Positions 1,828-47,675 of a DNA stretch of 64,000 nt are shown in pieces. The position numbers and the translations under genes are program-made. This DNA is from an uncultured Rickettsiales bacterium. Lineage in GTDB: Bacteria > Myxococcota_A > UBA796 > UBA9615. Below the pieces are notes generated by a model that was given only the letters and a program-made list of their open reading frames with translations, was not told the origin of the DNA and ran no database searches. The stretch spans positions 2,374 to 66,373 of the forward strand of contig CAZEKB010000030.1 of assembly GCA_964512225.1 (NCBI GenBank), in the 5' to 3' direction. Positions within the stretch are counted from its first letter, which is position 1. Each line of letters opens with the position of its first letter.

Positions 1828-3201
1828 ATGAGCGTCATGCCCGACCCCGAGCACCTGCCCGACCTGTCCCTGGACCCGGACGCCTCGACCGAGGACGAGG
1901 TGAACACGGACACGCACGCCGCGGTGACCGACGACGCCGTCGCCTCCGAGTGGGGCGGGGGCGCCGAGGGGCTCACGGTCCCCGCCTCGCCGGCGATGAC
2001 GATGGTCGCGATCCTGCGCAGCTGGACCCGGGCGGAGGGCCCCGACATGGCGGCGGTGGCCGACGCGCTCACGAGCGGGTCGCCGACGGTCGACCAGTTC
2101 CTCGCGGAGGGCGCCGAGGCCCGAGAGTTCGGACGCGCGCTGCTGTCCGGGGAGGTCTACGGCCTCGGCGCGGCCACGGACGAGGGTCGCGCCATCCCCA
2201 AGTCGCGCTGGCTCGCGCTCGCGAAGACCTCCCCCGAGGCCTTCGTCTGGCACGTGCCCCCGCCCTACGTCCTGCCCTTCGACACCGACGCGCAGGCCCG
2301 GACGTTCGCCGACGAGCTCCTGCCCTGGGTGGAGCGGGCGGACCTCCGGGTCACCCTGAACTGGCTCGGCGCCCCGGGGTTCCTGGACGACGACGACGCC
2401 GTCGATCGCATCTCCGACCTCGTGCGCGCCCAGGCGGCGATCGTCGGGTGGGGGCAGTCCGTGGACGCGCTCGAGGCGATGGTCCGGCGCGGCGGTCGGT
2501 GGCGCGCGGCGCGGACCCTGGAGCGCCTCCTGCGCGATCTGCAGCCCGACCGCGACGAGGCCGCGACGATCCAGCGGGTGGCGCGCAAGTGCATGGACGC
2601 CCAGCTGTTCGCCCGGATCGCCCGGGAGTCCCCCTGGAGACGGGACGACGCGATGCTCGCCGACCTCGCGGATCGGGTGCCGACCTCGTCCCTGGTGCGC
2701 GGGTTCTTCGACGACGACGTGGTCCGCCGCGCCCACCTGCGGGGAGCCGCCGCGGATCGGGTGCTGCGCACGGCCTGGCGGGCCCTGTCGGGGCGACAGG
2801 ACGGCGCCGCCCTGGTCGCGGCCGCGCGGCTGGTGATGCGGGAGGCCCGCGCGGGCCGCAACGCGGAGCTCTGTCGGGAGATGGTCCGGGCCCTCGCGGA
2901 CGTGCACGGCGACGCCGCGGTCGAGGCGATCACGGCGATCTTCTTGTCCGGGATCCACCGATCTCCGAGCGGCCCCGCCCTGCAGCGATTCCTCCTCGCG
3001 CGTCCCGAGGCCGCCCTCACGGCCGCCCTCGCGGAGCTGCCCGAGTGGGTGCCCGGGTTCGACGCCTCGGCGATGGAGCGGCTGGCCTACCGCTGCGTGG
3101 AGCTGTTGGACGACGAGGCCCGCGGGCGGGTCCGCGATCTCGCCGAGGTCTCCGACGGCGTCGCCGCCAAGCGCGTGCTCCGGGAGCTCGACGAGGTCTG
3201 A
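1828..3201 (+). CDS. Hypothetical alpha-helical protein (457 aa).
   Basis: This is the in-frame tail of ORF 385..3201, starting at MSVMPDPEHLPDLSLDP. Composition is Leu/Ala/Asp/Glu-rich and protein-like, unlike the Arg/Pro/Gly-rich upstream part. No recognisable domain. Confidence 0.5.
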   Translation: MSVMPDPEHLPDLSLDPDASTEDEVNTDTHAAVTDDAVASEWGGGAEGLTVPASPAMTMVAILRSWTRAEGPDMAAVADALTSGSPTVDQFLAEGAEAREFGRALLSGEVYGLGAATDEGRAIPKSRWLALAKTSPEAFVWHVPPPYVLPFDTDAQARTFADELLPWVERADLRVTLNWLGAPGFLDDDDAVDRISDLVRAQAAIVGWGQSVDALEAMVRRGGRWRAARTLERLLRDLQPDRDEAATIQRVARKCMDAQLFARIARESPWRRDDAMLADLADRVPTSSLVRGFFDDDVVRRAHLRGAAADRVLRTAWRALSGRQDGAALVAAARLVMREARAGRNAELCREMVRALADVHGDAAVEAITAIFLSGIHRSPSGPALQRFLLARPEAALTAALAELPEWVPGFDASAMERLAYRCVELLDDEARGRVRDLAEVSDGVAAKRVLRELDEV

Positions 3202-3354
3202 TCGGCTCCAGCAGGGTGCTGAAGAACGCCTCCCCTCGAACCGGGAGGGCTCGCCCCGCCGCAGCTCCGCTCGCTGCGCTCGCTGCCTGACGCCGCGCGG
3301 GGCGACCCTCCCGGCGGGTCGGCTCCTCGGTAGGACCCGAGACTTCCCGGCAGG

Positions 3355-3508
3355 CGGCAAGAACTCGGGCGTTTCACCGAACCGGGCCGGTTCTTGCCGG
3401 GGTTGCGGCAAGAACTCGGGCGTTTCACCGAACCCGGCCGGTTCTTGCCGGGGGTTGCGGCAAGAACTCCGCCGTTTCACCGAACCGGGGTGGGTTCTTC
3501 CGGGGCGC
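3355..3508. repeat. Tandem array of three ~51-52 bp hairpin units (REP/BIME-like), core AACTCGGGCGTTTCACCGAACCGGGC flanked by the inverted repeat GGCAAGAAC...GTTCTTGCC.
   Basis: Read directly: GCGGCAAGAACTCGGGCGTTTCACCGAACCGGGCCGGTTCTTGCCGGGGTT occurs three times, with the third copy degenerate. Each unit holds a 9-bp perfect inverted repeat. Spurious ORFs (3087..3428 -, 3394..3594 +, 3455..3661 +) read through it. Confidence 0.8.
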
Positions 3509-3514
3509 CCTCTA

Positions 3515-4697
3515 AACGGCCGAACAGCGGTTTGCTGCCTCACACAAATCAAGCAGCCCTCCCCAGCCCTGCCTGCGCTCCTGTTCGTGTGTAGGCCTCG
3601 AGGTAGCGCTTGGCCTCGCGGACGAGGGTCTCGATGTCGGGACATCGATGGTTCCTCGTGACGGCGGTGTGGACGTCGAGCCAGACACGCTCGATGGGGT
3701 TCCCCTCCGGCGAATAGGGCGGCAGAAAGCAGAGCTCGATCTTGCCGCCGAGCGCCTTCAGGGCCCTCCGGGTCTTCTTGCTTCGGTGGATGATGTAGTT
3801 GTCGACGACGAGGTGCACGGTGCCGTGCAGGCGGTAGCGGCTCGCGAGTTCGTGCAGGAGCTTGATGAAGAGGTCGCTCGCCTTGCTGGGGCCATCGACG
3901 GCCACGAGGGTCTTCGTGGCCGGGTTGTAGGCGCCTGCGATGTAGTGCTTCTTGTTCCTGCCGGGCGTCATGACGGTCTCTCTCAGGCCCCGAGGCGCCC
4001 AGTCCGGGCCGAGCTTCGGCAGCAGGTGGATGTCGACCTCGTCGGCGTACAGGACCACGTCGCCTTTCGGGACGGCCGCGAGCCACCGAGCCAGTCGTCG
4101 GAGCTGCTCGGCTTGGTCCGCGGGAGCGAGGGCGATGGTCTGCTGTGGTCGGACTCGACGGCACCCGGCCTCTCGAAGCAGCGACCCATCTGCGAGACGC
4201 TCACTGCGACTCCGTACCGCCGTCGCACCTCGTGGCAGACCAGCTCGATGGACCATGTGGAGCGCATCCACCCGAAACGTCCGGGCTGCTCGGCCACCAG
4301 CGCGGGGAGAGCCGCGACGATCTCCATACGACGAGCCAGCCGATGTGTACCCGCCCGGCGGCGGTCTCGCAGACCATCCAGACCTCCGTCACGAAGCAGA
4401 TACTCGGTCCGCTGAACGGTCGAGCGAGCGCAAGCAAGGACGGAAGCAACCCGGCGCTGCGACAGGCCCGCAGCCCGCGCCAGCAGAATGGAAGCCCGTC
4501 GTCGCTCCACGAAGGACGGGGAGTGGTCTCGGAGGAGAACGAGGTCGTCCTCCAGGGCGAGGATCTTCACTACGATGGGGGTCACGGCAGCCTTCCGTGC
4601 GGGGTGGATGGTGTCGCAACCCCCTTCTCTCACGATTGGCTGTCGTTTTCGAGCCCCTCTCTCCATTGGAGGGGCCTCACATCGCTGGGAAGCCCTC
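3515..4697 (-). mobile_element. IS630-family (Tc1/mariner superfamily) insertion sequence, ~1.18 kb, with TA dinucleotides at both junctions (right junction inside CTAG).
   Basis: It contains both halves of an IS630 DDE transposase. Junctions read cTAaacgg at 3513-14 and cctcTAgg at 4698-99. Imperfect terminal inverted repeats are only loosely matched by eye (AACGGCCGAACAGCGGTTTG versus the reverse complement of CAGCGATGTGAGG). Boundaries are good to about +/-10 bp. Confidence 0.7.
3549..4666 (-). pseudogene. IS630-family DDE transposase split into two overlapping frames. orfA (3983..4666) holds the HTH/winged-helix N-terminus; orfB (3549..4271) holds the DDE catalytic domain.
   Basis: orfA reads LARAAGLSQRRVASVLACARSTVQRTEYLLRDGGLDGL...WSIELVCHEVRRRYGVAVSVSQ (paired HTH). 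orfB reads LLREAGCRRVRPQQ...VVLYADEVDIHL...LVVDNYIIH...PPYSPEGNPIERVW (D, D, E triad). The frames switch near 4185-4195 by a -1 shift with no slippery heptamer, so a frameshift mutation or a sequencing error is likelier than a programmed frameshift. Confidence 0.8.
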
Positions 4698-5476
4698 TAG
4701 GCGAGCGCCGCCAGGAGCGCGCTCAGGGTCGCGTCTTCGTCGGCGCGCGACGTGTCCACGTGCACCTCGGCGGTGCGATACAGCGGCTCCCGGGCGCCGA
4801 GGATCGCGCGCAGCTCCTGCATGGCGTCGGCGCGCCCCGCGACCGGCCGGCGGTCCCCCTGGGCGAGGACCCGGTTCATGTGGTCCGCGGGGCTCGCCTG
4901 CAGCCACACCGACCGACACCGCGATCGCACGACGTCGAAGGCGGGCGCGTTCTGGACCACGCCCCCCGAGAGCGCGACCACCAGGGGACGCCCCTCGTCC
5001 AGGAGGCGGCGCAGCGACGCGGCCTCGAGGCGACGGTAGTAGGCCTCGCCGTGCAGGGAGAAGATCTCGCCCACGGACATCCCCGCGACGTCCTCGATCG
5101 CCTCGTCCAGCTCCACGAAGTCGACGCCCAGAGCCCCCGCGAGCCGTCGCCCGAGCGTGGTCTTGCCCGCCCCGCGCAAGCCGAGCAGGGCGACGACCTC
5201 CGGCGGCGGTTCGACGACCCGGCCCGGCCGCTCCTCTACGAGCCGGGCCACGTCCACGTCCAGGGCCCGAGCCACCGAGGCGAGACGTCCGATGGAGATG
5301 TTCCCCCGTCCCGCCTCGAGCTCCGATACGAACCGGGGGCTCAGGCCCGACTCCGCGGCGAGCCGGCGAGCCGTCCACTGCAGCTGCATCCGTCGCTCAC
5401 GCACCCGGCGGGCGACCCGCGCAAGGATCGCGACGGCCTCGGGCCGGGGGGCCCTCCCGCGGGGTTCGGGGGTCAT
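4697..5476 (-). CDS. boxR: BoxR/BzdR-type transcriptional regulator: N-terminal XRE-family HTH plus a C-terminal shikimate-kinase-like effector domain.
   Basis: C-terminal 259 aa of ORF 4697..6901. HTH segment: QLQWTARRLAAESGLSPRFVSELEAGRGNISIGRLASVARALDV. Shikimate-kinase Walker A segment: LLGLRGAGKTTLGRRLAGALGVDFVELDE...LSGG. It is divergent from boxC across an 81-bp AT-richer gap. The domain architecture matches the benzoyl-CoA-responsive regulators BzdR/BoxR. Confidence 0.8.
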   Translation of the reverse strand: MTPEPRGRAPRPEAVAILARVARRVRERRMQLQWTARRLAAESGLSPRFVSELEAGRGNISIGRLASVARALDVDVARLVEERPGRVVEPPPEVVALLGLRGAGKTTLGRRLAGALGVDFVELDEAIEDVAGMSVGEIFSLHGEAYYRRLEAASLRRLLDEGRPLVVALSGGVVQNAPAFDVVRSRCRSVWLQASPADHMNRVLAQGDRRPVAGRADAMQELRAILGAREPLYRTAEVHVDTSRADEDATLSALLAALA

Positions 5477-11010: not shown

Positions 11011-11805
11011 TCAGCCGCGCTTGCGCTGCGTCGCCCGCACGAGCCACCGCACCAGCCAGGGCGCGACGGCGTGCGTCCACATGAAGAGCTGGAGCATGAA
11101 CGGCGACACCACGGTGTCGCGCGGCCTGCGGATGGCGGACAGGATCACGTCGGCGCACCGCTCGGGGGAGCTCACGGGGATGAGGCGCGCGATCGTCGGG
11201 ATGTGCTCCCGGCTGCCGGGGTTGACGTCGAAGTAGCTGCTGGTGACCTCCCCGAGCACGACGTGGCAAGAGCGCACGCCCGTCCCCAGCAGGTCCATCC
11301 GCAGAGCCTCGTGCAGCCCGCGCAGGGCGTACCTCGCGCTCGCGTACCCGGTGCAGCCCCCCCACGGCATGATCCCCGCGGGCGAGTTGATGTGGAGGAT
11401 CAGCCCCGAGCGACGCTCGAGCATCGCCGTCATGAACGCGTGGGTCGCGTGGAACGCCGACAGGTACGGCGCCCCGATCATCGTCTTCACCTCGGCGGGC
11501 GCCGTGTCCTCGATGTAGAGCCAGCGGCCCGCGCCCGCGCAGTTGACGATCACGTCGGGGGTCCCGTGAGCCTCGATCACGCGCTTCGCCAGGGCCACCA
11601 CCGCGTCCCCGTCGGCCCCGTCCACCGGCTCCACGACCGCCGTACCGCCGGCGGCGCCGATCTCCGTGGCGAGCTCCTCCAGCACCGGCCGGCGGCGGGC
11701 GCAGACGACCACTCGCCAGCCCGCGGCGGCGAGCTTCACGGCCGTCGCACGGCCGATCCCGCTGGAGGCCCCGGTGACGACGGCCAGGTTCGAACGTCCG
11801 GTCAT
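11011..11805 (-). CDS. Short-chain dehydrogenase/reductase (SDR), 264 aa.
   Basis: Tail of ORF 11011..14112 starting at MTGRSNLAVVTGASSGIGRA (TGxxxGxG), with NCAG and a YxxxR/K-type active-site region (YASARYALRG). Confidence 0.85.
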   Translation of the reverse strand: MTGRSNLAVVTGASSGIGRATAVKLAAAGWRVVVCARRRPVLEELATEIGAAGGTAVVEPVDGADGDAVVALAKRVIEAHGTPDVIVNCAGAGRWLYIEDTAPAEVKTMIGAPYLSAFHATHAFMTAMLERRSGLILHINSPAGIMPWGGCTGYASARYALRGLHEALRMDLLGTGVRSCHVVLGEVTSSYFDVNPGSREHIPTIARLIPVSSPERCADVILSAIRRPRDTVVSPFMLQLFMWTHAVAPWLVRWLVRATQRKRG

Positions 11806-28966: not shown

Positions 28967-31665
28967 GGCCCCTGCTGCTCGCGCTCACCCTGCTCGCGGC
29001 GGGGTGTCCGGGCGCCGCGATCCTCGACGACGACGACGTCGCTCCGACCCCCACCGAGCCCGACGCACCGGAGTCTTCGGGCGCCCTCGAGGCGGCGGCG
29101 TGGTGGGGCGAGCTCGTGCTCGGCAGCGGCACGGAGACCGGACGGTGCCTGGCCGTGCAGGTCGACGACGCGGTGGCCCTGGGCCTGTGCGACCTGGGCA
29201 ACGGGCGGGGCTGGACCTACGACGCGGGCGCGCTCACCCTCACGAACGACGGCCTGTGCCTCGACGGCGGGGGCTCCGCGATCCACGCCGCGGCCTGCGA
29301 CGGCGGCTCGGATCAGCGCTGGGTCCACGACGCAGACGGCCGGCTGAGGACCCTGCTCGAGGGCGCCGACACCTGGGACTGCGCTCACGTGGTCGACCGC
29401 ACCGTGTTCCCCACCGTGGAGCGCTGCGACGACGGCCCCGACCAGCGGTGGGCGGTGGAGCCGCGACGGGCGGCCGTCGATCCGAGCTTCCTCGAGGGGC
29501 TGGGCCCCATGCGCGTGCCCGTGCCCCTGAACCCCGTCGCCGCGGTGGAGGCCGGGGCCGCGCCGCTGCTGCTCAGCGAGGAGGGCACGCCGGTGGTCGT
29601 CGCGGGGTCGATCGGGGCGGGCCGGGTCGTCGCGTTCGGCTCCGCCCGGGCGATCCGCGGCAGCGACCCCAACGACAGCTGGGCCCTCTTCTGGGGCCGC
29701 GTCCTCGCGTGGCTCGGAGACGACGAGGACCCCGTGGTGGGCCTCGGCCCCGACGCGACGGGGGCCGATTGGCTGAGCGACCTCGGCGTCACGGCCACCC
29801 CGGGCGTCGACCTGCTCACGGGCTCGCTCGCGGGGCTGGACATCCTGATCGTCGGCGACCGCGAGGGGGGCGGATTCGACCCCGCCGAGGTCGAAGTCCT
29901 GCACGAGTTCCTGCGCGACGGCGGCGGGCTGCTCCTGGCCCGCGACGCCTACCCGGCCGACGCGTACACCGCCGTGCAGCCCCTCGACGAGTACCGCACC
30001 GTCGCCGCCGCCGCCCCCGCGGGGGTGGCCTGGACGTGGTCGACGTCGAACGGCGCGGCCACGGACGTGGACCTGACGCCGACCGCGGAACCCGGCGCGT
30101 TCCACAACCTCACCGCCGCCCTCGAGCTCGCGAGCCGCGCCGAGCAGGACCTCGAGGAGCTCGAGCTCGAGACGTGGCAGGCGCTCCGCCGCGACTCCGC
30201 GGCCCCGGGCAGCGCGGGCACGCGCGGGAGCCGCTGGGGCCGACTCGCGGCCGCCACGGATGCGCTGCGGCGGGAGCTCGGCGGCCTCACGATCTCGGTG
30301 GACGACCCCCTGGACTTCAGCAGCGGTCAGCTCCCGGACCTCGTCCTGAGGGGCGACTACGTGCTCACCGGGGGCCTCGAGCCCGGGGACCCCCGCGTGC
30401 ACGAGTCGGCGGTCGCCTTCCCCGGGCCGATCCTCGACGACGCCGAGCCGGGGAGCGGCAGCGCCCGGATCGTCACCTTCGCGCCCCTGCGCGCGCACCG
30501 CCGGAGCACGGGGCTGTACGCGCTGCCCGGCTCGACGGTCGTCGTGACGGTGCCCTCGACGGCCTTCGAGCGCGGCCTGCACCTGCGCATCGGCGACGCG
30601 CTGCTCGATACGATGCCGGGAGTGGGCGATGCGAACCCCGGCGAGACGCCCCGCTTCCCCCGCCCCTGGACCGCCGCCCGCCTCGAACGCGCCGAGGTCG
30701 CCGTGGCCACGGCCTTCGGGGGGCCGATCTACGTGGACGTGCCCCAGGGCGACGGCGGGGGCCCGGTGACCCTGGAGTTCGAGGGCGTGGTCGGCATGCC
30801 GACCTTCCGCCCGGAGACGACCGACGACGAGTGGGGCGACGTGCAGGTCGCGCACCCCGGCGCCCGGGCCGAGATCGGCGGACAGCACCTCATCGTATCG
30901 GGGCCCGCCGCCGTCCTTCGCCTGGTGGAGACGCCGAGCTCCCTCGCCGCCCAGTTCGACGCCGCGGTCGCCGCCCACGAGACGTTCGCCGCGCTCACGG
31001 AGGGCCTGCGGCGCGCGTCGGAGGCGCTCCCGCACCGGGTGGTCGCCGACCCGCGGCAGGCCACGGGGTTCGCGTCGGGGCGTCCCCTGGAGATGGCCGA
31101 GGCGTGGACCCGCGGGCTGGTGTTCGAGGACCTGCAGCTCGGCAACGAGGCGCTCTTCGACCTGCTCCGCAGGCTCGGGGCGACCTATCGCCGCGACGTG
31201 TGGTCCCCCGCCGGCTGGCGGGGGGCGATGGAGGCGCTGGCCGCGGTGTACGCGTTCGAGGAGGCCACGGGCCTGCCCGGCTCCGAGGCGTGGCAGGGCA
31301 ACATCAACGACACGAGCCGGCAGATCCGTCGCGGGGATTGGTTGGCGGGGGACGCGAGCGGCTGGGACGCGGGCTTGGAGACCACCCTCGAGCTGTTCCT
31401 GATCGTCCGGGACGAGTTCGGCTGGGATCCGATCCTGACGGTCATCGCGGACCTGCGCGCCCTCCCGGGCGACGAACAGCCCGAGGACGGCGCCGCCAAG
31501 CTGCACGAGTGGATCGTCCGCCTCTCGGCGGAGGCCGGGGTGGACGTGGTGGGGCTCTTCCAAGCCTGGCGCTTCCCCATCGACGAGGCCACGCTCGAGG
31601 CCACCGAGGGCCTCACGGAGTGGACGCAGTGGCCGCGCCTCGAGCCCCCGCCGCCCGAAGAGTAG
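28963..31665 (+). CDS. Large lipoprotein (900 aa) with a ricin-B-type beta-trefoil lectin domain and a ThuA/class-I glutamine-amidotransferase-like domain.
   Basis: ATG overlaps the upstream stop (ATGA). Lipobox LLAAGCPG. QxW lectin motifs (DQRWVHD, DQRWAVE) with paired Cys. ThuA-like segment LDILIVGDREGGGFDPAEVEVLHEFLRDGGGLL. The C-terminal ~450 aa is unassigned. Confidence 0.75.
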   Translation: MRPLLLALTLLAAGCPGAAILDDDDVAPTPTEPDAPESSGALEAAAWWGELVLGSGTETGRCLAVQVDDAVALGLCDLGNGRGWTYDAGALTLTNDGLCLDGGGSAIHAAACDGGSDQRWVHDADGRLRTLLEGADTWDCAHVVDRTVFPTVERCDDGPDQRWAVEPRRAAVDPSFLEGLGPMRVPVPLNPVAAVEAGAAPLLLSEEGTPVVVAGSIGAGRVVAFGSARAIRGSDPNDSWALFWGRVLAWLGDDEDPVVGLGPDATGADWLSDLGVTATPGVDLLTGSLAGLDILIVGDREGGGFDPAEVEVLHEFLRDGGGLLLARDAYPADAYTAVQPLDEYRTVAAAAPAGVAWTWSTSNGAATDVDLTPTAEPGAFHNLTAALELASRAEQDLEELELETWQALRRDSAAPGSAGTRGSRWGRLAAATDALRRELGGLTISVDDPLDFSSGQLPDLVLRGDYVLTGGLEPGDPRVHESAVAFPGPILDDAEPGSGSARIVTFAPLRAHRRSTGLYALPGSTVVVTVPSTAFERGLHLRIGDALLDTMPGVGDANPGETPRFPRPWTAARLERAEVAVATAFGGPIYVDVPQGDGGGPVTLEFEGVVGMPTFRPETTDDEWGDVQVAHPGARAEIGGQHLIVSGPAAVLRLVETPSSLAAQFDAAVAAHETFAALTEGLRRASEALPHRVVADPRQATGFASGRPLEMAEAWTRGLVFEDLQLGNEALFDLLRRLGATYRRDVWSPAGWRGAMEALAAVYAFEEATGLPGSEAWQGNINDTSRQIRRGDWLAGDASGWDAGLETTLELFLIVRDEFGWDPILTVIADLRALPGDEQPEDGAAKLHEWIVRLSAEAGVDVVGLFQAWRFPIDEATLEATEGLTEWTQWPRLEPPPPEE

Positions 31666-31752
31666 GCCCCCCCCCGCAGGTCGCCGGTGACCCCTCCCCT
31701 CCACCTGGTGGGCGCCGATCTCCGGGCCCGAACGAGAGCGTCGCCTCTCTCG

Positions 31753-33228
31753 CTAACCGACCATCAGTCGCTGCCACCACGACTGCCTCAGCCCATCCTC
31801 GCCGCTCCTCAGCCAAGTGGCGAACTCACGCGGCGTCTCGACGACGACGATGTTGCCCTGCGCCTTCGCCTTGATGCGTGCGGGGAGCTTCGCCACGAAC
31901 CGATTGACCTCGTAGGACTGGTAGTTCTCAGCGAAGATGATCCGCTTGCGGTCCCGCCCCCATGAGCGGATCTCGGCCTTACCGAGCTGGATGGCATCGA
32001 CCCACTGGGTTCGACCCGAGTCGAACAGTTCCTGGATCGGCTGCCGGGGGAAGCACGCCGGAACCTCTCTGTGAGCCTGGTCGTACAGCTTCATGAAGAC
32101 CCGGCGTGCGGCGAGAAGATCATCGCCGTCGGTCACGTCCTGATCCGCGAGCTCTTTGAGATAGAGGAAGGAGAACCACTTGAAGATGTCGTTCGGCTGC
32201 TCGAGCACCGCTTTGAGGTGGTCCTTCGTCTCCGCGTTGTCGGGGAAGAGGACGTCGAAGTCGAGCATCCGCATCCGGCTGAACGCCCAGGTGTCGTTGG
32301 CCGTGGGCAGCTTATTGCTGGATACGATGATGGCCGGGAATACGCGCTCCTCGCTCCACCACTTCTCCCAGTACTCCTTGTAGACGCGCTCCAAGTCTCC
32401 CTTCTTCGAAGACAGGACGACGTCGTCGAACACCAGCGGGAACGTGGTGCGGGTCTGACCGAGACTCTGGATGTTCGCCTTCTTGAAGGCATCGTTGCCC
32501 AGGAGCCGCCAGCGCCGCCCCGTAAGCAGCCGGAGCGCGAACGTCAAGAACGTGGACTTGCCTGTGTGACTCGGCCCGTGGATGAAGAGGAACAAGGGCC
32601 CCCGCAGATCGACCTGACCGAAGCGCCTCCTCTTGAGCTTCATCAGCTCCGTGGCGAAGGGGGCCGACAGAATGCACAGCAAGGCCTCGAACATCGCCAT
32701 CTTGGCCCTCTTCGGGTAGAGGGAGCTTCCGAGGTCCACCGTTGCCAAGTAGTCCTCGATATTCCTGAGGGCTGCATCGAGTACTTCGGGTGTGGGCAGC
32801 GGCGCGGTGCGGCGGGTGTCCGTCTCCGAGTCGAGGCCCAGGTAGACCATCTGCCGCTCGAGATCGACTTGCATGGCCGGAACCCTTGTTCGACGACTTC
32901 GGAATCCGAGGAGGTCGGAACGGCGCAGTCGGACCGTCCCGTCGGGAGCCTCCGTCGCCTTGTACGGGGAGAGCGCCTGCAACGCTGCATCCTTCGCCTT
33001 CCGCGTTGCATCGCTGGGCAACGCGAATTCGATGATCTCCTCGGGAAGGGCCTGCCCGTCGTGCGGCACCAGCGCCTTCGTGGTCACTTCCTGGAGGGTC
33101 GCTTGCACCACGCGCATGACCTGCTCGTCGTCGCCCTCGGACAAGATCGCCTTCACCCACCGCTCCGCGATTGAGTGAGGCTGCTCGCTGCCGTCTCGGT
33201 CCGCCAGCAGCTCCCTCAAGTCTCCCAA
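31753..33228 (-). CDS. P-loop NTPase with SF3-helicase-like motifs (491 aa), function unknown, translationally coupled to the upstream PLD nuclease.
   Basis: ORF 31753..33228. Walker A PLFLFIHGPSHTGKSTF (the GPxxTGKS pattern of E1/Rep SF3 helicases), Walker B PLVFDDV, and motif-C-like AIIVSSNKLP. The start is TTG at 33228 (Shine-Dalgarno GAGG 6 nt upstream), or TTG at 33219 overlapping the PLD stop (TTGA). Hand-counted GC is about 60-63% against more than 70% in the flanks. The protein is Lys/Phe/Trp-rich. Confidence 0.8.
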   Translation of the reverse strand: MGDLRELLADRDGSEQPHSIAERWVKAILSEGDDEQVMRVVQATLQEVTTKALVPHDGQALPEEIIEFALPSDATRKAKDAALQALSPYKATEAPDGTVRLRRSDLLGFRSRRTRVPAMQVDLERQMVYLGLDSETDTRRTAPLPTPEVLDAALRNIEDYLATVDLGSSLYPKRAKMAMFEALLCILSAPFATELMKLKRRRFGQVDLRGPLFLFIHGPSHTGKSTFLTFALRLLTGRRWRLLGNDAFKKANIQSLGQTRTTFPLVFDDVVLSSKKGDLERVYKEYWEKWWSEERVFPAIIVSSNKLPTANDTWAFSRMRMLDFDVLFPDNAETKDHLKAVLEQPNDIFKWFSFLYLKELADQDVTDGDDLLAARRVFMKLYDQAHREVPACFPRQPIQELFDSGRTQWVDAIQLGKAEIRSWGRDRKRIIFAENYQSYEVNRFVAKLPARIKAKAQGNIVVVETPREFATWLRSGEDGLRQSWWQRLMVG

Positions 33229-33701
33229 GAAGGGCCTCGAGTGAGGTGGCGGTCGTAGCTCTTGAGAAGCCTTGCGAGGACGGGTGAATCGTCTGCGACA
33301 TCGTCCAGGTACCAGACGTAGTTGACCTGGTTGACTCGCCGGGCGGACTCCGTGAGGTTCGGGCTCCCTTGGATGATGCGGCGCTTCCCGTCACCCTCCA
33401 GGATGTAGAACTTCGTGTGCAGGCTCTTCTTCTTGGGGGAGTGCACTCGCAGCCTGCCCTCGGTCATGAGGACCCCGAGCTTCGCGACGAAGTCCGTGCC
33501 CTCCTTCGCCACATCCTGAACCTCCCGATTACTGAGGTTCTCGCCTACGACGACTTCGATGGACTCGTACCCGAGCTTCTCCATCCAATCGACGAGGGTC
33601 TTCGGGCTCGTCACGTAGGAGACGGCTTTCAGCCTCGTGAAGCCCTTGAAGAGGCCTTCGAAGTCCGCTCGTCTCTCGATCACTTTGTCCTTGAATTGCA
33701 T
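33216..33701 (-). CDS. Small phospholipase-D-superfamily (HKD) nuclease, single HKD motif (Nuc/BfiI-like, 161 aa).
   Basis: HKD motif HTKFYILEGDGKRRIIQGSPNLTESA, matching the pattern HxK(x4)D/E(x6)GSxN. ATG at 33701 with a strong Shine-Dalgarno sequence AGGAGGA 8 nt upstream. Its lower GC (roughly high-50s to 60%) matches the adjacent ATPase gene. Confidence 0.85.
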   Translation of the reverse strand: MQFKDKVIERRADFEGLFKGFTRLKAVSYVTSPKTLVDWMEKLGYESIEVVVGENLSNREVQDVAKEGTDFVAKLGVLMTEGRLRVHSPKKKSLHTKFYILEGDGKRRIIQGSPNLTESARRVNQVNYVWYLDDVADDSPVLARLLKSYDRHLTRGPSWET

Positions 33702-33790
33702 ACCGCGGTCCTCCTACACGTTCGACGGGACCCGCCCAGGGCTATTCAGCCCCGTGTCGCGCGCGCCTCCGGATCAGCCTACTGAGGGGC

Positions 33791-33807
33791 GGGACAGAAA
33801 CTGTCCC
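33791..33807. promoter_or_regulatory. Perfect hairpin/palindrome cGGGACAG-aaa-CTGTCCCg about 90 nt upstream of the PLD-nuclease start.
   Basis: Read directly: 8-bp stem and 3-nt loop. No gene ends just upstream on either strand, so it reads as a candidate operator or structured 5'-leader, not a terminator. Coordinates are +/-2. Confidence 0.3.
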
Positions 33808-33954
33808 GGGTAGCTCGCAGCCGCGTCGATCGAGGACCAACGACCAGAACGAGGCTCAGCTCAGGACTCCGGGAACCACCCGCGCGAGGCGTGTGACCAC
33901 CCCCACGAAGCGATGCGTGGCAGCGCCGGAGCGCCCACATCGCAGCGGCGAGAT

Positions 33955-34100
33955 GTCACCGAACCGGGGCAGTTCACCGAACCCGGCGGGTTTCTGCCGC
34001 CTTTGCGGCAACAACTCGGGCGTTTCACCGAACCGGGCGGGTTTCTGCCGCCTCTGCGGCAACAACTCGCGCGGTTCACCGAACCGGGCCGACCGGGCGC
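33955..34100. repeat. Second tandem array (about 3 units of ~51 bp) of the same hairpin repeat family as 3355..3508, sharing the core AACTCGGGCGTTTCACCGAACCGGGC.
   Basis: Read directly: ...GGCAACAACTCGGGCGTTTCACCGAACCGGGCGGGTTTCTGCCGCCTCTGC appears twice, plus partial copies. The imperfect inverted repeat GCGGCAACAAC/GTTTCTGCCGC has 9 of 11 positions paired. It lies in the divergent gap between the PLD gene (-) and the vWA lipoprotein gene (+). Spurious ORFs 33856..34161 and 33913.. read through it. Confidence 0.75.
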
Positions 34101-34159
34101 CGCGAAGCCCGCCGGGGCGGGCCTCGATCCTGCAGGCTCCCTCGGCGGAGGTCTTCATC

Positions 34160-35686
34160 ATGTCTCGTCCCTTCGGTCGTCCCCTTCCCTTCGCCCTGAT
34201 CGCTCTGATCGCCGCCGGGTGCCCCGCCTACGAGATGGACGAGGCCGGCTACGGCCGCGGGGGCGGGGGCGACGACGACGACGGCGCTTGGGGCGACGAC
34301 GACGACGACGACGACGACGGCCCCGACGACGAGGAGCCCACCGAGCCGCCCGAGGACGGCCTCGACGACGTGTGCGAGGGCGCCGCGGACGTACCGGTCA
34401 CGCTGTACATGTCCGCCGACGACTCCAACTCCCAGGCCGCGCCCGTGCTCGCGCGCCACATGATCGACGCGGGCATGCGCTCGCCCGGCCAGGGGGCGCC
34501 GTACGAGTTCCTCAACTACTACGACTTCGACCTCGCGCCCGCGGAACCGGGCAGCGTCCGGCTCGAGGCGCAGATGCGGCCGATCGTGGGCACGGAGGGG
34601 GGCTACTCGGTCCTCGTCGCGGCGGTGGCCGAAGAGCGCACGATCGAAGAGCGGGCAGACCTCAACCTCGTGATGAGCATCGACCGCTCCTGCTCGATGG
34701 GCGGCCTGCCGATCGACCTCGCGAAGCAGTCGATGGAGCAGATGACCGCCTCCCTGCGCGAAGGCGACATCGTCTCGATCGTGGAGTGGAGCGCGCAGGC
34801 GGCGACCATCATCGACGGCCACGTCGTCCAGGGTGCGTCCGACGCCACGCTCGTGCAGATCATCCGGGGCATCAGCGAGGGGGGCGGCACGGACCTGCAC
34901 AACGGCCTGGTCCACGCCTACGAGGTGGCCGCGTCCCACGCGTCGCCCGAGCGCCTCAGCCGGGTGGTGCTGCTGAGCGACGGGGGCGCGAACCTCGGCC
35001 AGACGTCCGCCGAGATCATCGGGGCCGCCGCGGACGACTCGGAGGCCGCGGGCACGTACCTCGTGGGCGTCGGCGCGAGCACGCCCGGCAACTACGCCCA
35101 CGACCTCATGAACGAGGTCACCGACATGGGCAAGGGCTCGTACATCTACATCGACGACCAGGACGAGGCCGAGCACCAGTTCCGGGGCCGCCGCTTCATC
35201 TCCAACCTCGACGTGGCCGCGCTGGATGTGCGCCTCGCGGTCGAGGTCCCCGCGGGGTTCGTCATCGACGAGTTCCACGGCGAGGAGATCAGCAAGAACC
35301 CCGAGGACGTGGAGCCGCAGCACCTCGCGCCCAACGACTCGATGCAGTACCACTTCACCCTCGTGGACTGCCCCGAGGCGCCCGCCGAGCGCGACACGCG
35401 CTTCACCTTCACGATCACGTGGACCGACCCCGTCACCCGCGAGCAGCGCAGCGAAGAGCGCGACCTGCTCCTCGAGGACCTGCTCGGGGGCGACGTCCGC
35501 GCGCTGGTGAAGGCGGACGCCCTGGTCGCCTACGCGGAGGCGCTCCCCCGGGGGTCGCGGACGTCGGAGGATCTCGAGCGCATGGACGCGGCGCTGCAGG
35601 TGGTGCAGGAGGCCGTCCTGGCCTTCCCGCAGGACGCCGACCTCGCCGAAGTCCTCGACCTGCTCACGCGCACCCGCAACCTCTAA
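34160..35686 (+). CDS. vWA-domain lipoprotein (VIT-vWA-like), 508 aa, with an N-terminal poly-Asp tract.
   Basis: ATG at 34160 with the Shine-Dalgarno sequence GGAGG 8 nt upstream. Lipobox LIAAGCPA, then GGGGDDDDGAWGDDDDDDDDGPDDEEP. MIDAS motif DRSCSMGG, plus later vWA signatures (LLSDGGAN). Confidence 0.85.
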   Translation: MSRPFGRPLPFALIALIAAGCPAYEMDEAGYGRGGGGDDDDGAWGDDDDDDDDGPDDEEPTEPPEDGLDDVCEGAADVPVTLYMSADDSNSQAAPVLARHMIDAGMRSPGQGAPYEFLNYYDFDLAPAEPGSVRLEAQMRPIVGTEGGYSVLVAAVAEERTIEERADLNLVMSIDRSCSMGGLPIDLAKQSMEQMTASLREGDIVSIVEWSAQAATIIDGHVVQGASDATLVQIIRGISEGGGTDLHNGLVHAYEVAASHASPERLSRVVLLSDGGANLGQTSAEIIGAAADDSEAAGTYLVGVGASTPGNYAHDLMNEVTDMGKGSYIYIDDQDEAEHQFRGRRFISNLDVAALDVRLAVEVPAGFVIDEFHGEEISKNPEDVEPQHLAPNDSMQYHFTLVDCPEAPAERDTRFTFTITWTDPVTREQRSEERDLLLEDLLGGDVRALVKADALVAYAEALPRGSRTSEDLERMDAALQVVQEAVLAFPQDADLAEVLDLLTRTRNL

Positions 35687-35696
35687 GCTCGCGGGC

Positions 35697-38036
35697 ATGG
35701 GGAAGCTCCGACTCGTCGCCCTCTCGGTCTGTGCGTGGGCCCTCGGCGGCTGCGTCTTCTTCGGGAACCCGTTCGACCTCGACAACGACGGCACGCCCGA
35801 CGTGCGCGACTGCGACAACGGCAGCGCGGTGCTCAACGACCTCGACGAGGACGACGACGGCTGGACGTCCTGCGAGGGCGACTGCGACGACCGTCGAGCG
35901 ACCGTGTTCCCCACGGCCGTAGAGGTCTGCGAAGGCCGCGATACGGACTGCGACGGGGCCGTGCCCGACGAAGAGATCGACATCGACGGCGACGGGTTCG
36001 CGGCGTGCGAAGGCGACTGCAACGAGGCGGCGCGAACGATCTTCCCCGGGGCCGACGAACTCTGCGACGGGCTCGACTCCGACTGCGACGGCTCGGTGCC
36101 CCCCGAAGAGGACATCGACGTCGACGCGGACGGGTTCCCCGCCTGCTCGGACTGCGACGACGGAGACGGAGACGTGTACCCCGGAGCCGCCGAGGCGTGC
36201 GACGGCGTGGACACCGACTGCGACGGCGAGGCGCTGCCCACCGAGGTCGACTTCGACGGCGACGGCTCCTGGGCCTGCGCGGACTGCGACGACCAGAATC
36301 CCCAGGTCCATCCCGGGGCGGACGAAGTCTGCGACGGGCGGGACACCGACTGCGACGGCGCGCTCGGAGCCGCCGAGATCGACGTCGACGGCGACGGCTA
36401 CGGGCCCTGCCAGGGCGACTGCGCGCCGGGCGACCCGAACGCGAACCCCGGGGCCGTCGAGGCCTGCAACGGGGAGGACGACGACTGCGACGGCTCGGTG
36501 CCCCTGGACGAGAGCCTCGACAGCGACGGCGACGGGGTGACGGACTGCGACGACTGCGCGCCCCACGACCCGGCCACGAACCCCGGGGCGGGCGATCCCC
36601 TGCCGCCCCCCACCCCGGAGACGTGCGTCGCCTTCACGGGCGGCCCGATCGCGACCGACTCGGCGGCGCGGGTCCCGGGCACGACCTCCGGGGAGCGGAT
36701 GGGGGACGTGTTGGGCTCCCTCGGCGACGTCGACGGGGACGGCGTGGACGACTTCGCGGTGGCCGCGCCCCTGTACGAAGGCGCGCTCGGCGGCTCGGAG
36801 GGGCGGCTGCTCGTGATCAGCGGGGCGGACGCGCTGCTCGGAGGCGCCGTGGACCCCCTCACGACGATCGGCGCCGACGCCCTCGGAGACCGGGTCGGCT
36901 CGTCCGTCGCCGCCCTCGGGGACCTGGACGGGGACGGCCGGGGCGACTTCGCGGTGGGCGCGACCGGCGTCGACGGACCCGGCGGCTCCAACGCGGGCGC
37001 GGTGGGCGTCTTCTTCGGCTCGGGCATCGCCCGGGGGGTGCCGCTGACGCTCTCCGACGCCGACCTGCTGCTCGACGGCGAGGTCACCCTCGACGCGTTC
37101 GGCACGGCGATGGCCACGGCGGGCGACGTCGATCACGACGGCCTGACCGACCTCGTCGTGGGGGCCCCCGGCTACGACCCGGGCGGCCTGGTCAACGGCG
37201 GCAAGGTCTACGTATTCCGGGGCGCCCGCATCCTGTCCGGGGCGATCCTCGACGCGGGCGACGCGACGATCTCGTTCCTGGGCGCCGAAGCGGGGGACAG
37301 CCTCGGCGACTCGGTCTCGGGCGCGGGTGACGTGGACGGTGACGGCTGCGACGACGTCGTCGCGGGCGCGGAGTGGGCCGGATCGTCCCCCCGGGACGCG
37401 GGACGCGCCTACGTCTGGTCGGGCGGGGACGTGCGGGGCGGGGGCGAGTTCGCGGTGAGCGACGCCCTCGCGTCGCTGGAGGGGGCGGCGTCCTTCGATC
37501 GGGCGGGCTCGGTGGTCGCGTCCGCCGGAGACGTGGACGGCGACGGCCTCGGGGACGTGCTCGTCGCGTCCAGCCAGAGCGCGTCCAACGGCACCCAGGC
37601 GGGCAGCGTGTACCTGCTGCTGGGCTCCTCCCTGAGCGCGGGCGGCGCGATCGGGGCGGGCGACGCGGACGCCCGGTTCATCGGCCCCAACAGCTACGCG
37701 CGGCTCGGGCTCTCGGCCGCGAACGCGGGCGACGTGGACGGCGACGGGCGCGACGACATCCTGCTCGGGGGCGAGCTGAGCGCGAGCGAGGCGGGGATGG
37801 CGACCGTCGTCCTGGGCTGCGAAGCGGTGGCGGGCGGAGTCCTCACCCTGAGCGCGGGGGTGTCCTCCTGGAGCGGCGCCGAGTCGGGCGAGCTGCTGGG
37901 CTCCGCCGTCGCGGGGCTCGGCGACCTCGACGGAGACGGCCTCGACGATCTGCTCGTGGGCAGCCGCGGGTGGGACGACGGCGCGTCCGCGGTCGGCCGG
38001 GCGGACGTCCTGCTGAGCCCCTACGCCGCGCCCTGA
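35697..38036 (+). CDS. Lipoprotein with about 7 MopE-like Cys/Asp metal-binding motifs followed by FG-GAP (integrin-alpha-like) repeats, 779 aa.
   Basis: Lipobox ALGGCVFF. Repeated CxDxDxxxxPGAxExCDGxDxDCDG motifs. Multiple GDVDGDGxxD and VGAPG FG-GAP signatures. Confidence 0.8.
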   Translation: MGKLRLVALSVCAWALGGCVFFGNPFDLDNDGTPDVRDCDNGSAVLNDLDEDDDGWTSCEGDCDDRRATVFPTAVEVCEGRDTDCDGAVPDEEIDIDGDGFAACEGDCNEAARTIFPGADELCDGLDSDCDGSVPPEEDIDVDADGFPACSDCDDGDGDVYPGAAEACDGVDTDCDGEALPTEVDFDGDGSWACADCDDQNPQVHPGADEVCDGRDTDCDGALGAAEIDVDGDGYGPCQGDCAPGDPNANPGAVEACNGEDDDCDGSVPLDESLDSDGDGVTDCDDCAPHDPATNPGAGDPLPPPTPETCVAFTGGPIATDSAARVPGTTSGERMGDVLGSLGDVDGDGVDDFAVAAPLYEGALGGSEGRLLVISGADALLGGAVDPLTTIGADALGDRVGSSVAALGDLDGDGRGDFAVGATGVDGPGGSNAGAVGVFFGSGIARGVPLTLSDADLLLDGEVTLDAFGTAMATAGDVDHDGLTDLVVGAPGYDPGGLVNGGKVYVFRGARILSGAILDAGDATISFLGAEAGDSLGDSVSGAGDVDGDGCDDVVAGAEWAGSSPRDAGRAYVWSGGDVRGGGEFAVSDALASLEGAASFDRAGSVVASAGDVDGDGLGDVLVASSQSASNGTQAGSVYLLLGSSLSAGGAIGAGDADARFIGPNSYARLGLSAANAGDVDGDGRDDILLGGELSASEAGMATVVLGCEAVAGGVLTLSAGVSSWSGAESGELLGSAVAGLGDLDGDGLDDLLVGSRGWDDGASAVGRADVLLSPYAAP

Positions 38037-46499: not shown

Positions 46500-47675
46500 A
46501 TGCTCGCCCGCACCGCGCTGTGGATCGCCGTCGCCGCGCTCGTCGCTCCCGGAACGGCGGGCGCCGCGTCCGGGGACACCGACGCCTTCGGCTACACGGC
46601 GCGCAGCAGCACGGACGGCGGGTCGCCGTACTCCTACACGTCGGTCACCAGCGGCACGTACCGGGCCCTGCTCGATGAAGACTTCCGCACCGTCCAGCTC
46701 CCGTTCCCGTTCACCTTCTACGGGACCAGCCACGGCTCGGTGGACATCCACAGCAACGGCGCGCTGACGTTCGGCGCGAGCGGGTTCCTGCCCTGGGACC
46801 GCGAGTGCGGCGGGCTCCTGTCCCTCAGCCCTCGGATCTGGGTCTGGTACGACGACCTCGACCCCACCGACATCCCCCTCGTCACGCCGCTGCCGGGGGT
46901 GTACAGCAGCGTCGTCGGCGAAGCCCCGGACCGCGTGTTCGTCGTGGAGTGGTTCCAGATCCCGCTGTACGAGGTCGCCGACCCGCTCAGCTTCGAGGTG
47001 AAGCTGTTCGAGACGGACGGTCGCGTGGAGCTGCACTTCGCCGACACCCAGACCAGCGACGGTTCGCGCAACGGCGGCGCGACGGCGGCGGTGGGCATCT
47101 CCAACGCGGACAGCGACCCCCTGCTCTTCTCCTGCGATCAGGCGGTCCTCTCCGCGGGCTTCGCGGTCACCTTCTATCCGCCCTGCGACGACGTCGACGG
47201 CGACGGGTTCTGCCCCGGCCCCGCGCCCGATCCCGAGGACCGGGACTGCGACGACACCGACCGCCACGTGCACCCCGGCGCGGAGGAGCGCTGCAACGCG
47301 ATCGACGACGACTGCGACGGCGACGTGCCCGACGACGAGCGGGACGGCGACGGCGACGACGAGGCCCCCTGCGCGGGCGACTGCGACGACGAAGAGGCCA
47401 CCGTCCACTCCGGCGCCGAGGAGGTGTGCAACGAGGTCGACGACGACTGCGACGGCGAGGCCGACGAGGACCTCGACTGCGACCCCGTCGACGACGACGA
47501 CGCGGCCGACGACGACACCACCGACGACGACGACGCAGCCGGGGGGATCCCCTACGGCTGCCTCGTGCGCTGCTCGGGAGCGGGGCCCGTCGCCCCGCCC
47601 GGCGCCCTCGCGGCCCTTGCAGTGATCCTGTGGACCGGCCGACGGCGGCGCGACCGGGCCGATCCGGTGCCTTGA
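46500..47675 (+). CDS. Secreted protein with MopE-like metal-binding motifs and a C-terminal MYXO-CTERM-type sorting signal (391 aa).
   Basis: Signal peptide MLARTALWIAVAALVAPGTAGAA. C-terminal CxDxDxDG motifs. Terminal segment GCLVRCSGAGPVAPPGALAALAVILWTGRRRRD (Cys, a hydrophobic helix, then an Arg-rich tail). Confidence 0.7.
   Translation: MLARTALWIAVAALVAPGTAGAASGDTDAFGYTARSSTDGGSPYSYTSVTSGTYRALLDEDFRTVQLPFPFTFYGTSHGSVDIHSNGALTFGASGFLPWDRECGGLLSLSPRIWVWYDDLDPTDIPLVTPLPGVYSSVVGEAPDRVFVVEWFQIPLYEVADPLSFEVKLFETDGRVELHFADTQTSDGSRNGGATAAVGISNADSDPLLFSCDQAVLSAGFAVTFYPPCDDVDGDGFCPGPAPDPEDRDCDDTDRHVHPGAEERCNAIDDDCDGDVPDDERDGDGDDEAPCAGDCDDEEATVHSGAEEVCNEVDDDCDGEADEDLDCDPVDDDDAADDDTTDDDDAAGGIPYGCLVRCSGAGPVAPPGALAALAVILWTGRRRRDRADPVP

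Follow-up and report, generated by a model that had tools for sequence, protein, structure and literature searches.

The BOX elements of S. pneumoniae and S. suis, with the plan boxA-boxB(n)-boxC, are composite, non-coding sequences dispersed near gene ends; in them a distinct 5' module is followed by a tandem inner module of variable number and by a distinct 3' module, and the terminal modules pair into a stem (PMC3049150). The RUP repeat of S. pneumoniae, like MITEs of the IS630/Tc1 type, is small, with inverted ends, apparent TA junctions and a location beside IS; its proposed insertion sites are IS elements or their vicinity, and IS630-Spn1 its proposed mover (PMC3049150). REP sequences and BIMEs are GC-rich imperfect palindromes which lie outside genes, are restricted to species and serve as IS targets (PMC1525189, PMC2817692); REP copies carry a GT(A/G)G head, alternate in orientation within clusters and have a cognate rayt gene with inverted REPs on its flanks (PMC2817692). 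They usually number more than 100 per genome. MIRU-VNTR loci consist of direct tandem units of 40-100 bp, dispersed between the genes of a high-GC genome, non-palindromic and polymorphic in number between strains (PMC5056196). As to IS630/Tc1 elements, they insert into TA and duplicate it (PMC2170065), and the TA of CTAG is a preferred IS630 target according to the passage of that paper which cites Tenzen and Ohtsubo 1991.

The stretch analysed here (64 kb, 71% GC; hereafter the window) had been described in a first-pass annotation as carrying three hairpin units of about 51 bp. These were confirmed by Tandem Repeats Finder (TRF), by a repeat search and by folding of the DNA. For 3354-3505, TRF gives a period of 51, 2.9 copies and 91% matches (score 246); the repeat search puts the unit starts 51 and 52 nt apart (3354, 3405 and 3457), and array 1 is made of three head-to-tail units of 51, 52 and ~50 bp, the second and third being 98% and 84% identical to the first. 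Unit 1 is an imperfect palindrome with 21-nt arms (3355-3375 and 3379-3399), 76% complementary, around a 3-nt ACC loop, and each unit is an imperfect palindrome of 45-48 nt. Folded as single-stranded DNA, the three units have free energies of -16.4, -18.9 and -11.1 kcal/mol (z = -4.0, -5.4 and -1.6). The outer stem, CGGCAAGAAC/GTTCTTGCCG, is of 10 bp in units 1 and 2 and contains one mismatch in unit 3. With palindromes in tandem, the DNA can equally well form hairpins in a second register, across the unit junction, and this is the favoured fold of array 2. The arrays were identical across independent ENA, JGI and Logan assemblies; they are not assembly artefacts.

Seven occurrences of the core TTCACCGAACCSGG (up to 2 mismatches), all within arrays 1 and 2, plus one stray match, were found in the 64-kb window, for an expected count of 1.3; none of 100 shuffles reached 8. 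The sister array that had been reported 30 kb away, array 2, was also confirmed; TRF gives a period of 51 and 2.3 copies for it at 33972-34089 (score 208). An nhmmer unit profile revealed no solitary unit elsewhere in the window. That the array codes for protein was also considered and discarded, since the 52-nt unit disrupts the reading frame and since arrays are either extragenic or plainly secondary protein tails. The window also contains coding tandem repeats of 132-135 bp (35871-36494 and 47244-47527), Cys/Asp-rich and MopE-like (metal-binding), in two large secreted proteins; these two sets are related to each other.

Array 1 is only the internal part, variable in copy number, of a composite element of 302 bp (3211-3512) in which a 143-bp left module (A) is followed by 2-4 tandem 51-bp units (B) and by a distinct terminal unit (C). 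The coordinates are collected in Table 1. Module A gave nhmmer matches with E = 3e-42 and 3e-39. The C unit of array 1 is 91% identical to the solitary unit of a fourth locus (L085), its tail GGGGCGCCC included. The ends of the element pair with each other, AGGGTGCT/GAAGAAC with GTTCTTC/GGCGCCCT, over 15 bp with a 3-nt bulge, and the fold of the whole element closes on its termini (z = -3.9). On the left, the stop of the 457-aa gene is 9 nt upstream of the element. On the right, the array had been said to end just before the TA junction of an IS630 element, which is correct: that TA is 7 nt past the end of the TRF array, and those 7 nt, CGCCCTC, are part of the repeat element. Integron attC sites have core sites of the form RYYYAAC ... 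GTTRRRY; the arms AAGAAC / GTTCTT fit neither, and this candidate was discarded.

Table 1. Position of the repeat elements and of neighbouring features, in the window or in the contig named
Feature	Sequence	Position	Strand	Remarks
Hypothetical gene, 457 aa	window	1828..3201	+	gene call in L058; no Pfam match
Left module A	window	3211..3353	+	starts GCAGGGTGCTGAAGAAC; 88% identical to L085 9996-10131 (blastn)
Internal hairpin of module A	window	3245-3261 / 3312-3328		inverted-repeat search
9-bp repeat inside module A	window	3264-3286		TRF
B units, 51 and 52 bp	window	3354-3404, 3405-3456	+	
Terminal variant unit C	window	3457..3512	+	ends GGGGTGGGTTCTTCCGGGGCGCCCTC; pairs with start of module A
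TA, left copy of IS630 target duplication	window	3513..3514	.	directly after last base of element
IS630-family IS, 1183 bp	window	3515..4697	-	imperfect terminal inverted repeats (TIR alignment)
boxR-like regulator gene	window	4697..5476	-	HTH_3 + shikimate-kinase domain (Pfam)
Lineage-specific insertion, 2.43 kb	window	31666..34091	.	87 bp + NTPase gene + PLD-like gene + 253 bp + array 2
P-loop NTPase gene	window	31753-33228	-	weak AAA match
Small PLD-like gene	window	33216-33701	-	weak PLDc_2 / DrmC-like match
Array 2	window	33955..34091	+	without module A and terminal unit
Fragment of array 2	window	33955-33972		
Unit without 5' arm, array 2	window	33973-34004		
Full unit, array 2	window	34005-34055		
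Truncated unit, array 2	window	34056-34091		
Ancestral spacer	window	34092..34159	+	upstream of vWA lipoprotein gene (34160-35686)
Array 3, three 51-bp units	L076	10906-11058		found via P0001
Different IS630-family element	L085	8632-9993		good inverted ends; abuts left end of element
Module A copy, 136 bp	L085	9996-10131		88% identical to window 3211-3353
Four-unit array	L085	10132-10334		
Solitary terminal unit	L085	11604-11658		1.27 kb past four-unit array; also delimited as 11605-11657

The reading that we favour, with a probability of about 0.6, takes the array for the middle part, able to expand, of a composite element which is non-coding and MITE-like, has mutually pairing ends and a BOX-like plan, and targets TA in stop codons. 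The order of modules is that of BOX, being A, two B and the terminal unit in the window, and A, four units and the terminal unit at the fourth locus. Both systems are composite, non-coding and dispersed near gene ends, with a distinct 5' module, a tandem inner module of ~45-51 bp variable in number, a distinct 3' module, and terminal modules that pair (PMC3049150). The present element differs from BOX in being GC-rich, in belonging to Myxococcota, in having hairpin-forming inner units and in its number, four loci against >100 for BOX; the likeness is one of architecture, a relation in sequence not being expected and none being seen in the Rfam search of the region. MIRUs are likewise direct tandem units in dispersed intergenic positions (PMC5056196) and lack flanking modules with pairing ends, while the units of the element are palindromic.

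Two further loci were revealed by searching array-encoded peptides in protein databases, which led to P0001 (array 3) and to P0244 (fourth locus, L085-L088). The fourth locus contains the complete set of modules and its surrounding genes are unrelated to the neighbours of array 1. A ~1.24-kb segment of native GC content, with a lipoprotein gene, lies between its array and its terminal unit; in view of that GC content, the locus could represent two separate insertions instead of one element. A 9-bp repeat of module A, GCTGCGCTC (window 3264-3286; L085 ~10050), is length-polymorphic between fourth-locus contigs, P0244 and P0314 differing by 3 aa.

Array 3 is on the same contig as the window (Ga0115651_1000046), where it precedes the first base of the window by ~35 kb and has the orientation of arrays 1 and 2. 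The gene of P0001 spans 10001-11080 of L076, with SelO upstream in the closest homologue. Homologues of P0001 have ~63 more C-terminal residues after ...CFAPERR, the point at which P0001 runs into array-encoded sequence, which indicates that array 3 took the place of the 3' part of this conserved gene. Database proteins of the P0001 type carry artificial FTEPG-repeat tails. The number of units in array 3 differs between contigs: P0311 corresponds to three of them, and P0313, which is shorter by exactly 17 aa, to two.

The element is thus present at four loci at least in one marine Myxococcota population, an uncultured one whose near relatives, by their proteins, carry the label Myxococcota. 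Three of them, arrays 1, 2 and 3, share a chromosome and an orientation, with distances of ~39 and ~31 kb between them. The number of units varies between loci (3, ~2.7, 3 and 4 for arrays 1, 2, 3 and the fourth locus) and between strains, and truncated copies exist: arrays 2 and 3 are without module A, and array 2 is also without the terminal unit. Among the eight units that were aligned, members of the same array have more variants in common than members of different arrays do, a sign of expansion or homogenisation in place.

Beyond these loci, the exact-pattern scans gave only coding or chance matches, which argues for a very restricted family. A tandem-core scan of 185,579 species genomes returned 52 matches, all of them FTEP-type coding or unrelated repeats and none a family member; the 11 matches of a single-unit scan of a metagenome collection were all due to chance or coding; two scans of viral contigs returned no copies. 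An unrelated 23-bp tandem repeat, GATTTCACCGAACCGGGCCGCAC, of a Bryobacterales MAG (L042, 5930-5986) has the 17-nt core TTTCACCGAACCGGGCC in common with the units, probably by chance. Peptide searches were of unequal reach: an exhaustive protein search in one reading frame found two array-coded ORFs, and a six-frame peptide query of a word-indexed protein database found array 3 only, missing P0244, so that silence there is weak evidence. The 4.4 kb left and the ~10 kb right of the window contain no more units, which makes two arrays in 78 kb of unbiased sequence. Several metagenome contigs have one of their ends within array 2 or within module A (L055 1-76, L057 1-76, L061 1-215 and L062 1-159); the element thus breaks short-read assemblies, and its copies may be under-represented in contig collections. 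All in all, the best reading is that of a low-copy, lineage-restricted new family within the MITE/BOX-like composite interspersed repeats. Just right of the window end, a strain-variable block lies beside the same CoA-transferase gene in two contigs (L082 7138-9516 versus L084 1-3054); one version has a 304-aa gene, an Imm33 gene and 189-aa and 180-aa genes, the other has 475-, 336- and 168-aa genes. This block looks like an immunity/toxin-type variable region.

Array 2 had been noted to adjoin an acquired island, and this is borne out by a comparison with two sister species, whose vWA proteins show 76% and 67% identity to that of the window. In both, the M60 peptidase gene is followed by a 67-72-bp spacer and then by vWA, without the PLD/NTPase genes and without any unit. 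When the two regions (L077 and L081) are aligned, the ancestral spacer resumes from GACCGGGCG, at 34092 of the window, right after the truncated unit (...GAACCGGGCC|GACCGGGCG); since the spacer realigns there, 31666-34091 is a lineage-specific insertion of which array 2 is the exact right edge. The GC content of the two island genes is 0.59-0.63, versus 0.71-0.76 around them. Their homologues are fused 'phospholipase D family' ORFs on haloarchaeal megaplasmids (~30% identity), and no PADLOC system matched the NTPase. The PLD-like and NTPase genes overlap by 13 nt. The left junction coincides with the TAG stop of the M60 gene (31663-31665), whereas relatives stop further on, at TGA or TAA; from this exact coincidence, the insertion apparently reshaped the M60 C-terminus. 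At window 31640-31665, the M60-like peptidase ends ...PPPPEE*, earlier than the ...PPPPPEEEEEDP* of the sister species.

Such a structure raises the question of co-mobilisation, i.e. of element modules bounding a cargo (the PLD/NTPase cassette with array 2, or the L085 lipoprotein gene) as in MITE-bounded composite transposons. The island and array 2 are jointly absent from the two sister species, array 2 is the exact edge, the L085 gene has the unit array on one side and the terminal unit on the other, and a weak module-A-like stretch (GCAGGTCGCCGGTGACCCCTCCCCTCC..., 31676..31722, + strand) is found at the left edge of the island. This stretch would put the island inside an element, but it is too weak to be taken for a module A remnant: its local alignment score of 28 has p ~0.06 against random windows, its identity to module A is ~60%, and it is below the nhmmer threshold. 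Against co-mobilisation are also the lack of a terminal module in array 2, the native GC of the L085 inner segment, and the identity of only ~30% between the NTPase and its homologues on haloarchaeal plasmids. The failure of the genome, metagenome and viral scans above to return a copy makes co-mobilisation with widespread elements unlikely, and we consider the cargo reading as a whole improbable.

The IS630-family element at the right end of array 1 is flanked by TA 3513-3514 and TA 4698-4699, and its removal restores C-TA-G. Its transposase gene is split by one frameshift (ORFs 3549-4271 and 3983-~4585); once rejoined, the protein has a DDE_3 domain and is 72% identical, over 100% of the length, to intact 346-aa IS630-family transposases. 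The exact IS product was found only at the array 1 locus, and its closest homologues, 72-80% identical, are on short contigs. The CTAG that was hit is provided by the TAG stop of the boxR-like gene (CTA at 4697-4699). Repeats and IS were also found side by side at the fourth locus: a second, different IS630-family element abuts the element there. It is flanked by TA, and its removal restores CAC-TA-G, in which the stop codon (TAG) of an FKBP gene runs into module A and its initial G. By its DDE_3 transposase, inverted ends, TA duplication and CTAG target (in the window copy and the L085 copy, CTAG being also found for a relative), the neighbouring IS fits the IS630/Tc1-mariner group. Among contigs with identical flanking proteins, there were no IS-less or island-less strain variants.

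The claim that the arrays flank acquired DNA therefore stands for array 2 and gains the second IS630 at the fourth locus; it fails for array 3, which has no IS or GC dip within 10 kb. Whether the hairpin arrays are themselves integration hot spots, as preferred targets or fragile sites for IS and foreign cassettes, has to be weighed from the four loci. All four were changed at an element boundary or inside the element: array 1 has an IS630 on its right, the fourth copy has a different IS630 on its left and an inner segment besides, and the other changes are the island against array 2, absent in sister species, and a gene truncation at array 3. There are 5 CTAG sites in the 64-kb window and 15 in ~120 kb of the population's DNA with the IS removed, at least 7 of these being stop codons; 3 of the 15 adjoin element ends and both IS630 copies are within those three, an excess with p ~0.03-0.04 for a uniform choice among CTAG sites and two events only. 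Targeting of REP by IS is besides well documented (PMC1525189), BIMEs and REPs being targeted by IS1397, IS621 and ISPpu9. The known REP-targeting IS, however, hit the palindromes internally and are members of the IS3, IS110, IS4, IS256 and IS5 families, IS630 not being among them (PMC1525189), whereas both IS630 insertions here are in the junction TA, outside the hairpin units, in a TA/CTAG common to the stop codon. In another Myxococcota genome, a related IS (66% identical transposase) likewise occupies the TA of a CTAG that belongs to a stop codon, and its surroundings are free of repeats. Both copies being in stop-codon CTAG, and the related IS likewise without repeats, the adjacency requires no attraction by hairpins. 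Array 3 is moreover without foreign DNA, and the sample comprises four loci, two of which were found through the arrays themselves. We therefore hold a hot spot made by the hairpins to be rather unlikely. Of the initial proposal that the repeats are preferred integration targets, the association with junctions of change is retained; it is probably explained by a common use of rare TA/CTAG sites at gene ends, and not by hairpins that draw in IS630.

The first-pass annotation had also likened the repeats to REP/BIMEs. Membership of the REP/BIMEs proper, with a RAYT (Y1) transposase as the agent of dispersal, would agree with GC-rich imperfect palindromes beside gene ends, with their restriction to a species and with three arrays within ~70 kb, comparable to REP families clustered around their rayt gene (PMC2817692). 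The comparison breaks down on the details. The units start GCGGCAAGAAC, and no GTAG/GTGG head is present in the eight aligned units; at all four loci they are direct, on the same strand and not alternating, and at 45-51 nt they are longer than REPs; the RAYT motif NP[LV][RK]xG is absent from the six frames of the window and of L058, L076 and L082 (~100 kb); and very few copies are known, at the four loci found. Membership of this family is thus extremely improbable.

A host function in cis is another reading, the array being either a centromere- or iteron-like set of protein-binding sites or an RNA 3'-end hairpin which terminates or stabilises transcripts. The eight aligned units have a nearly invariant 5' arm and core and a variable 3' arm, with an uncompensated G-to-C change in array 2, suggesting recognition of sequence more than of structure. 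The 51-52-bp period is close to five helical turns, and right ends are 0-22 nt past the stop codons of minus-strand genes. In addition, the core contains GTTTCAC (window 3370-3381, and every other unit), identical to a half-site of the universal parS, TGTTTCACGTGAAACA. As the other half-site does not keep its place in the units (GTTTCACCGAAC), binding of ParB to them seems unlikely. Opposed to a host role are the absence of array 2 at the same gene pair in sister species, the destruction of a conserved C-terminus by array 3 and the differences in copy number between strains; scans of the element for T-tail terminators and sigma-70 promoters found none, and the repeat region has no Rfam match. 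We regard such a role as very unlikely.

We return to the composite, MITE-like element and to how it may have inserted. Six of its boundaries can be observed, and they are TA, TA, TA, CA, TG and AA. The three TA are at live stop codons, those of boxR (right end of array 1), FKBP (left end of the fourth copy) and M60 (left edge of the insertion); CA, TG and AA are each one step from TA and are at boundaries where no gene needs the dinucleotide. This pattern would be produced if the element inserted into TA and duplicated it, and if the TA copy that is not under selection then decayed. Empty sites were not recovered for array 1, array 3 or the fourth locus, and the duplication is deduced from these six boundaries, three of which are not TA. 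In its terminal inverted repeats and its small, non-coding and dispersed nature the element conforms to a MITE, but it lacks ends like those of a resident IS: in an end-anchored comparison, its ends show no resemblance to the four ends of the two IS630 copies (p = 0.2-0.9), and the units have no significant similarity to IS630 ends (p = 0.10 and 0.99). No cognate transposase was identified, the ends of neither neighbouring IS630 matching those of the element. This sets it apart from RUP, whose ends match those of IS630-Spn1; RUP and the element are otherwise alike in size, inverted ends, apparent TA junctions and position beside IS, the TA duplication of the element being deduced.

The proposed course of events is as follows. 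The element would transpose into TA dinucleotides, in a 71% GC genome largely within stop codons. It starts with G and ends with C, so that each junction would rebuild a TAG stop; insertion into stop codons may be tolerated because these ends restore TAG at both junctions. With the same geometry, junctions would often read C-TA-G, the preferred IS630 target, which could account for the precise position of two different IS630 copies at the ends of the element. As for the PLD/NTPase island, its most likely landing site was an older copy of the element, now truncated, or the DNA next to it.

Small interspersed repeats are well described in few model bacteria, and hardly in Myxococcota or in uncultured marine lineages; here a BOX-like plan, with pairing end modules and an expandable tandem core, is found in a GC-rich genome of quite another kind. 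In practice, metagenome assemblies break at such elements, and predicted proteins such as P0001 and P0244 acquire spurious tails from them. With rare TA and CTAG sites concentrated in the stop codons of a GC-rich genome, TA-using elements would be funnelled to gene ends, which offers a testable reason why repeats, IS and acquired cassettes accumulate at the same gene ends. A more tentative idea, which we rate as unlikely, goes further: a TA-targeting composite with G...C ends would live inside the stop codons of packed convergent genes, rebuilding TAG on either side, and would seed further change there: its junctions would serve as CTAG landing pads for IS630, breakage and recombination of its tandem hairpin units would truncate genes, and foreign cassettes, the defence-like PLD/NTPase pair for example, would become lodged between its modules. 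If this were true, genes would be gained and lost locally, at gene ends, under the influence of a small non-coding repeat.
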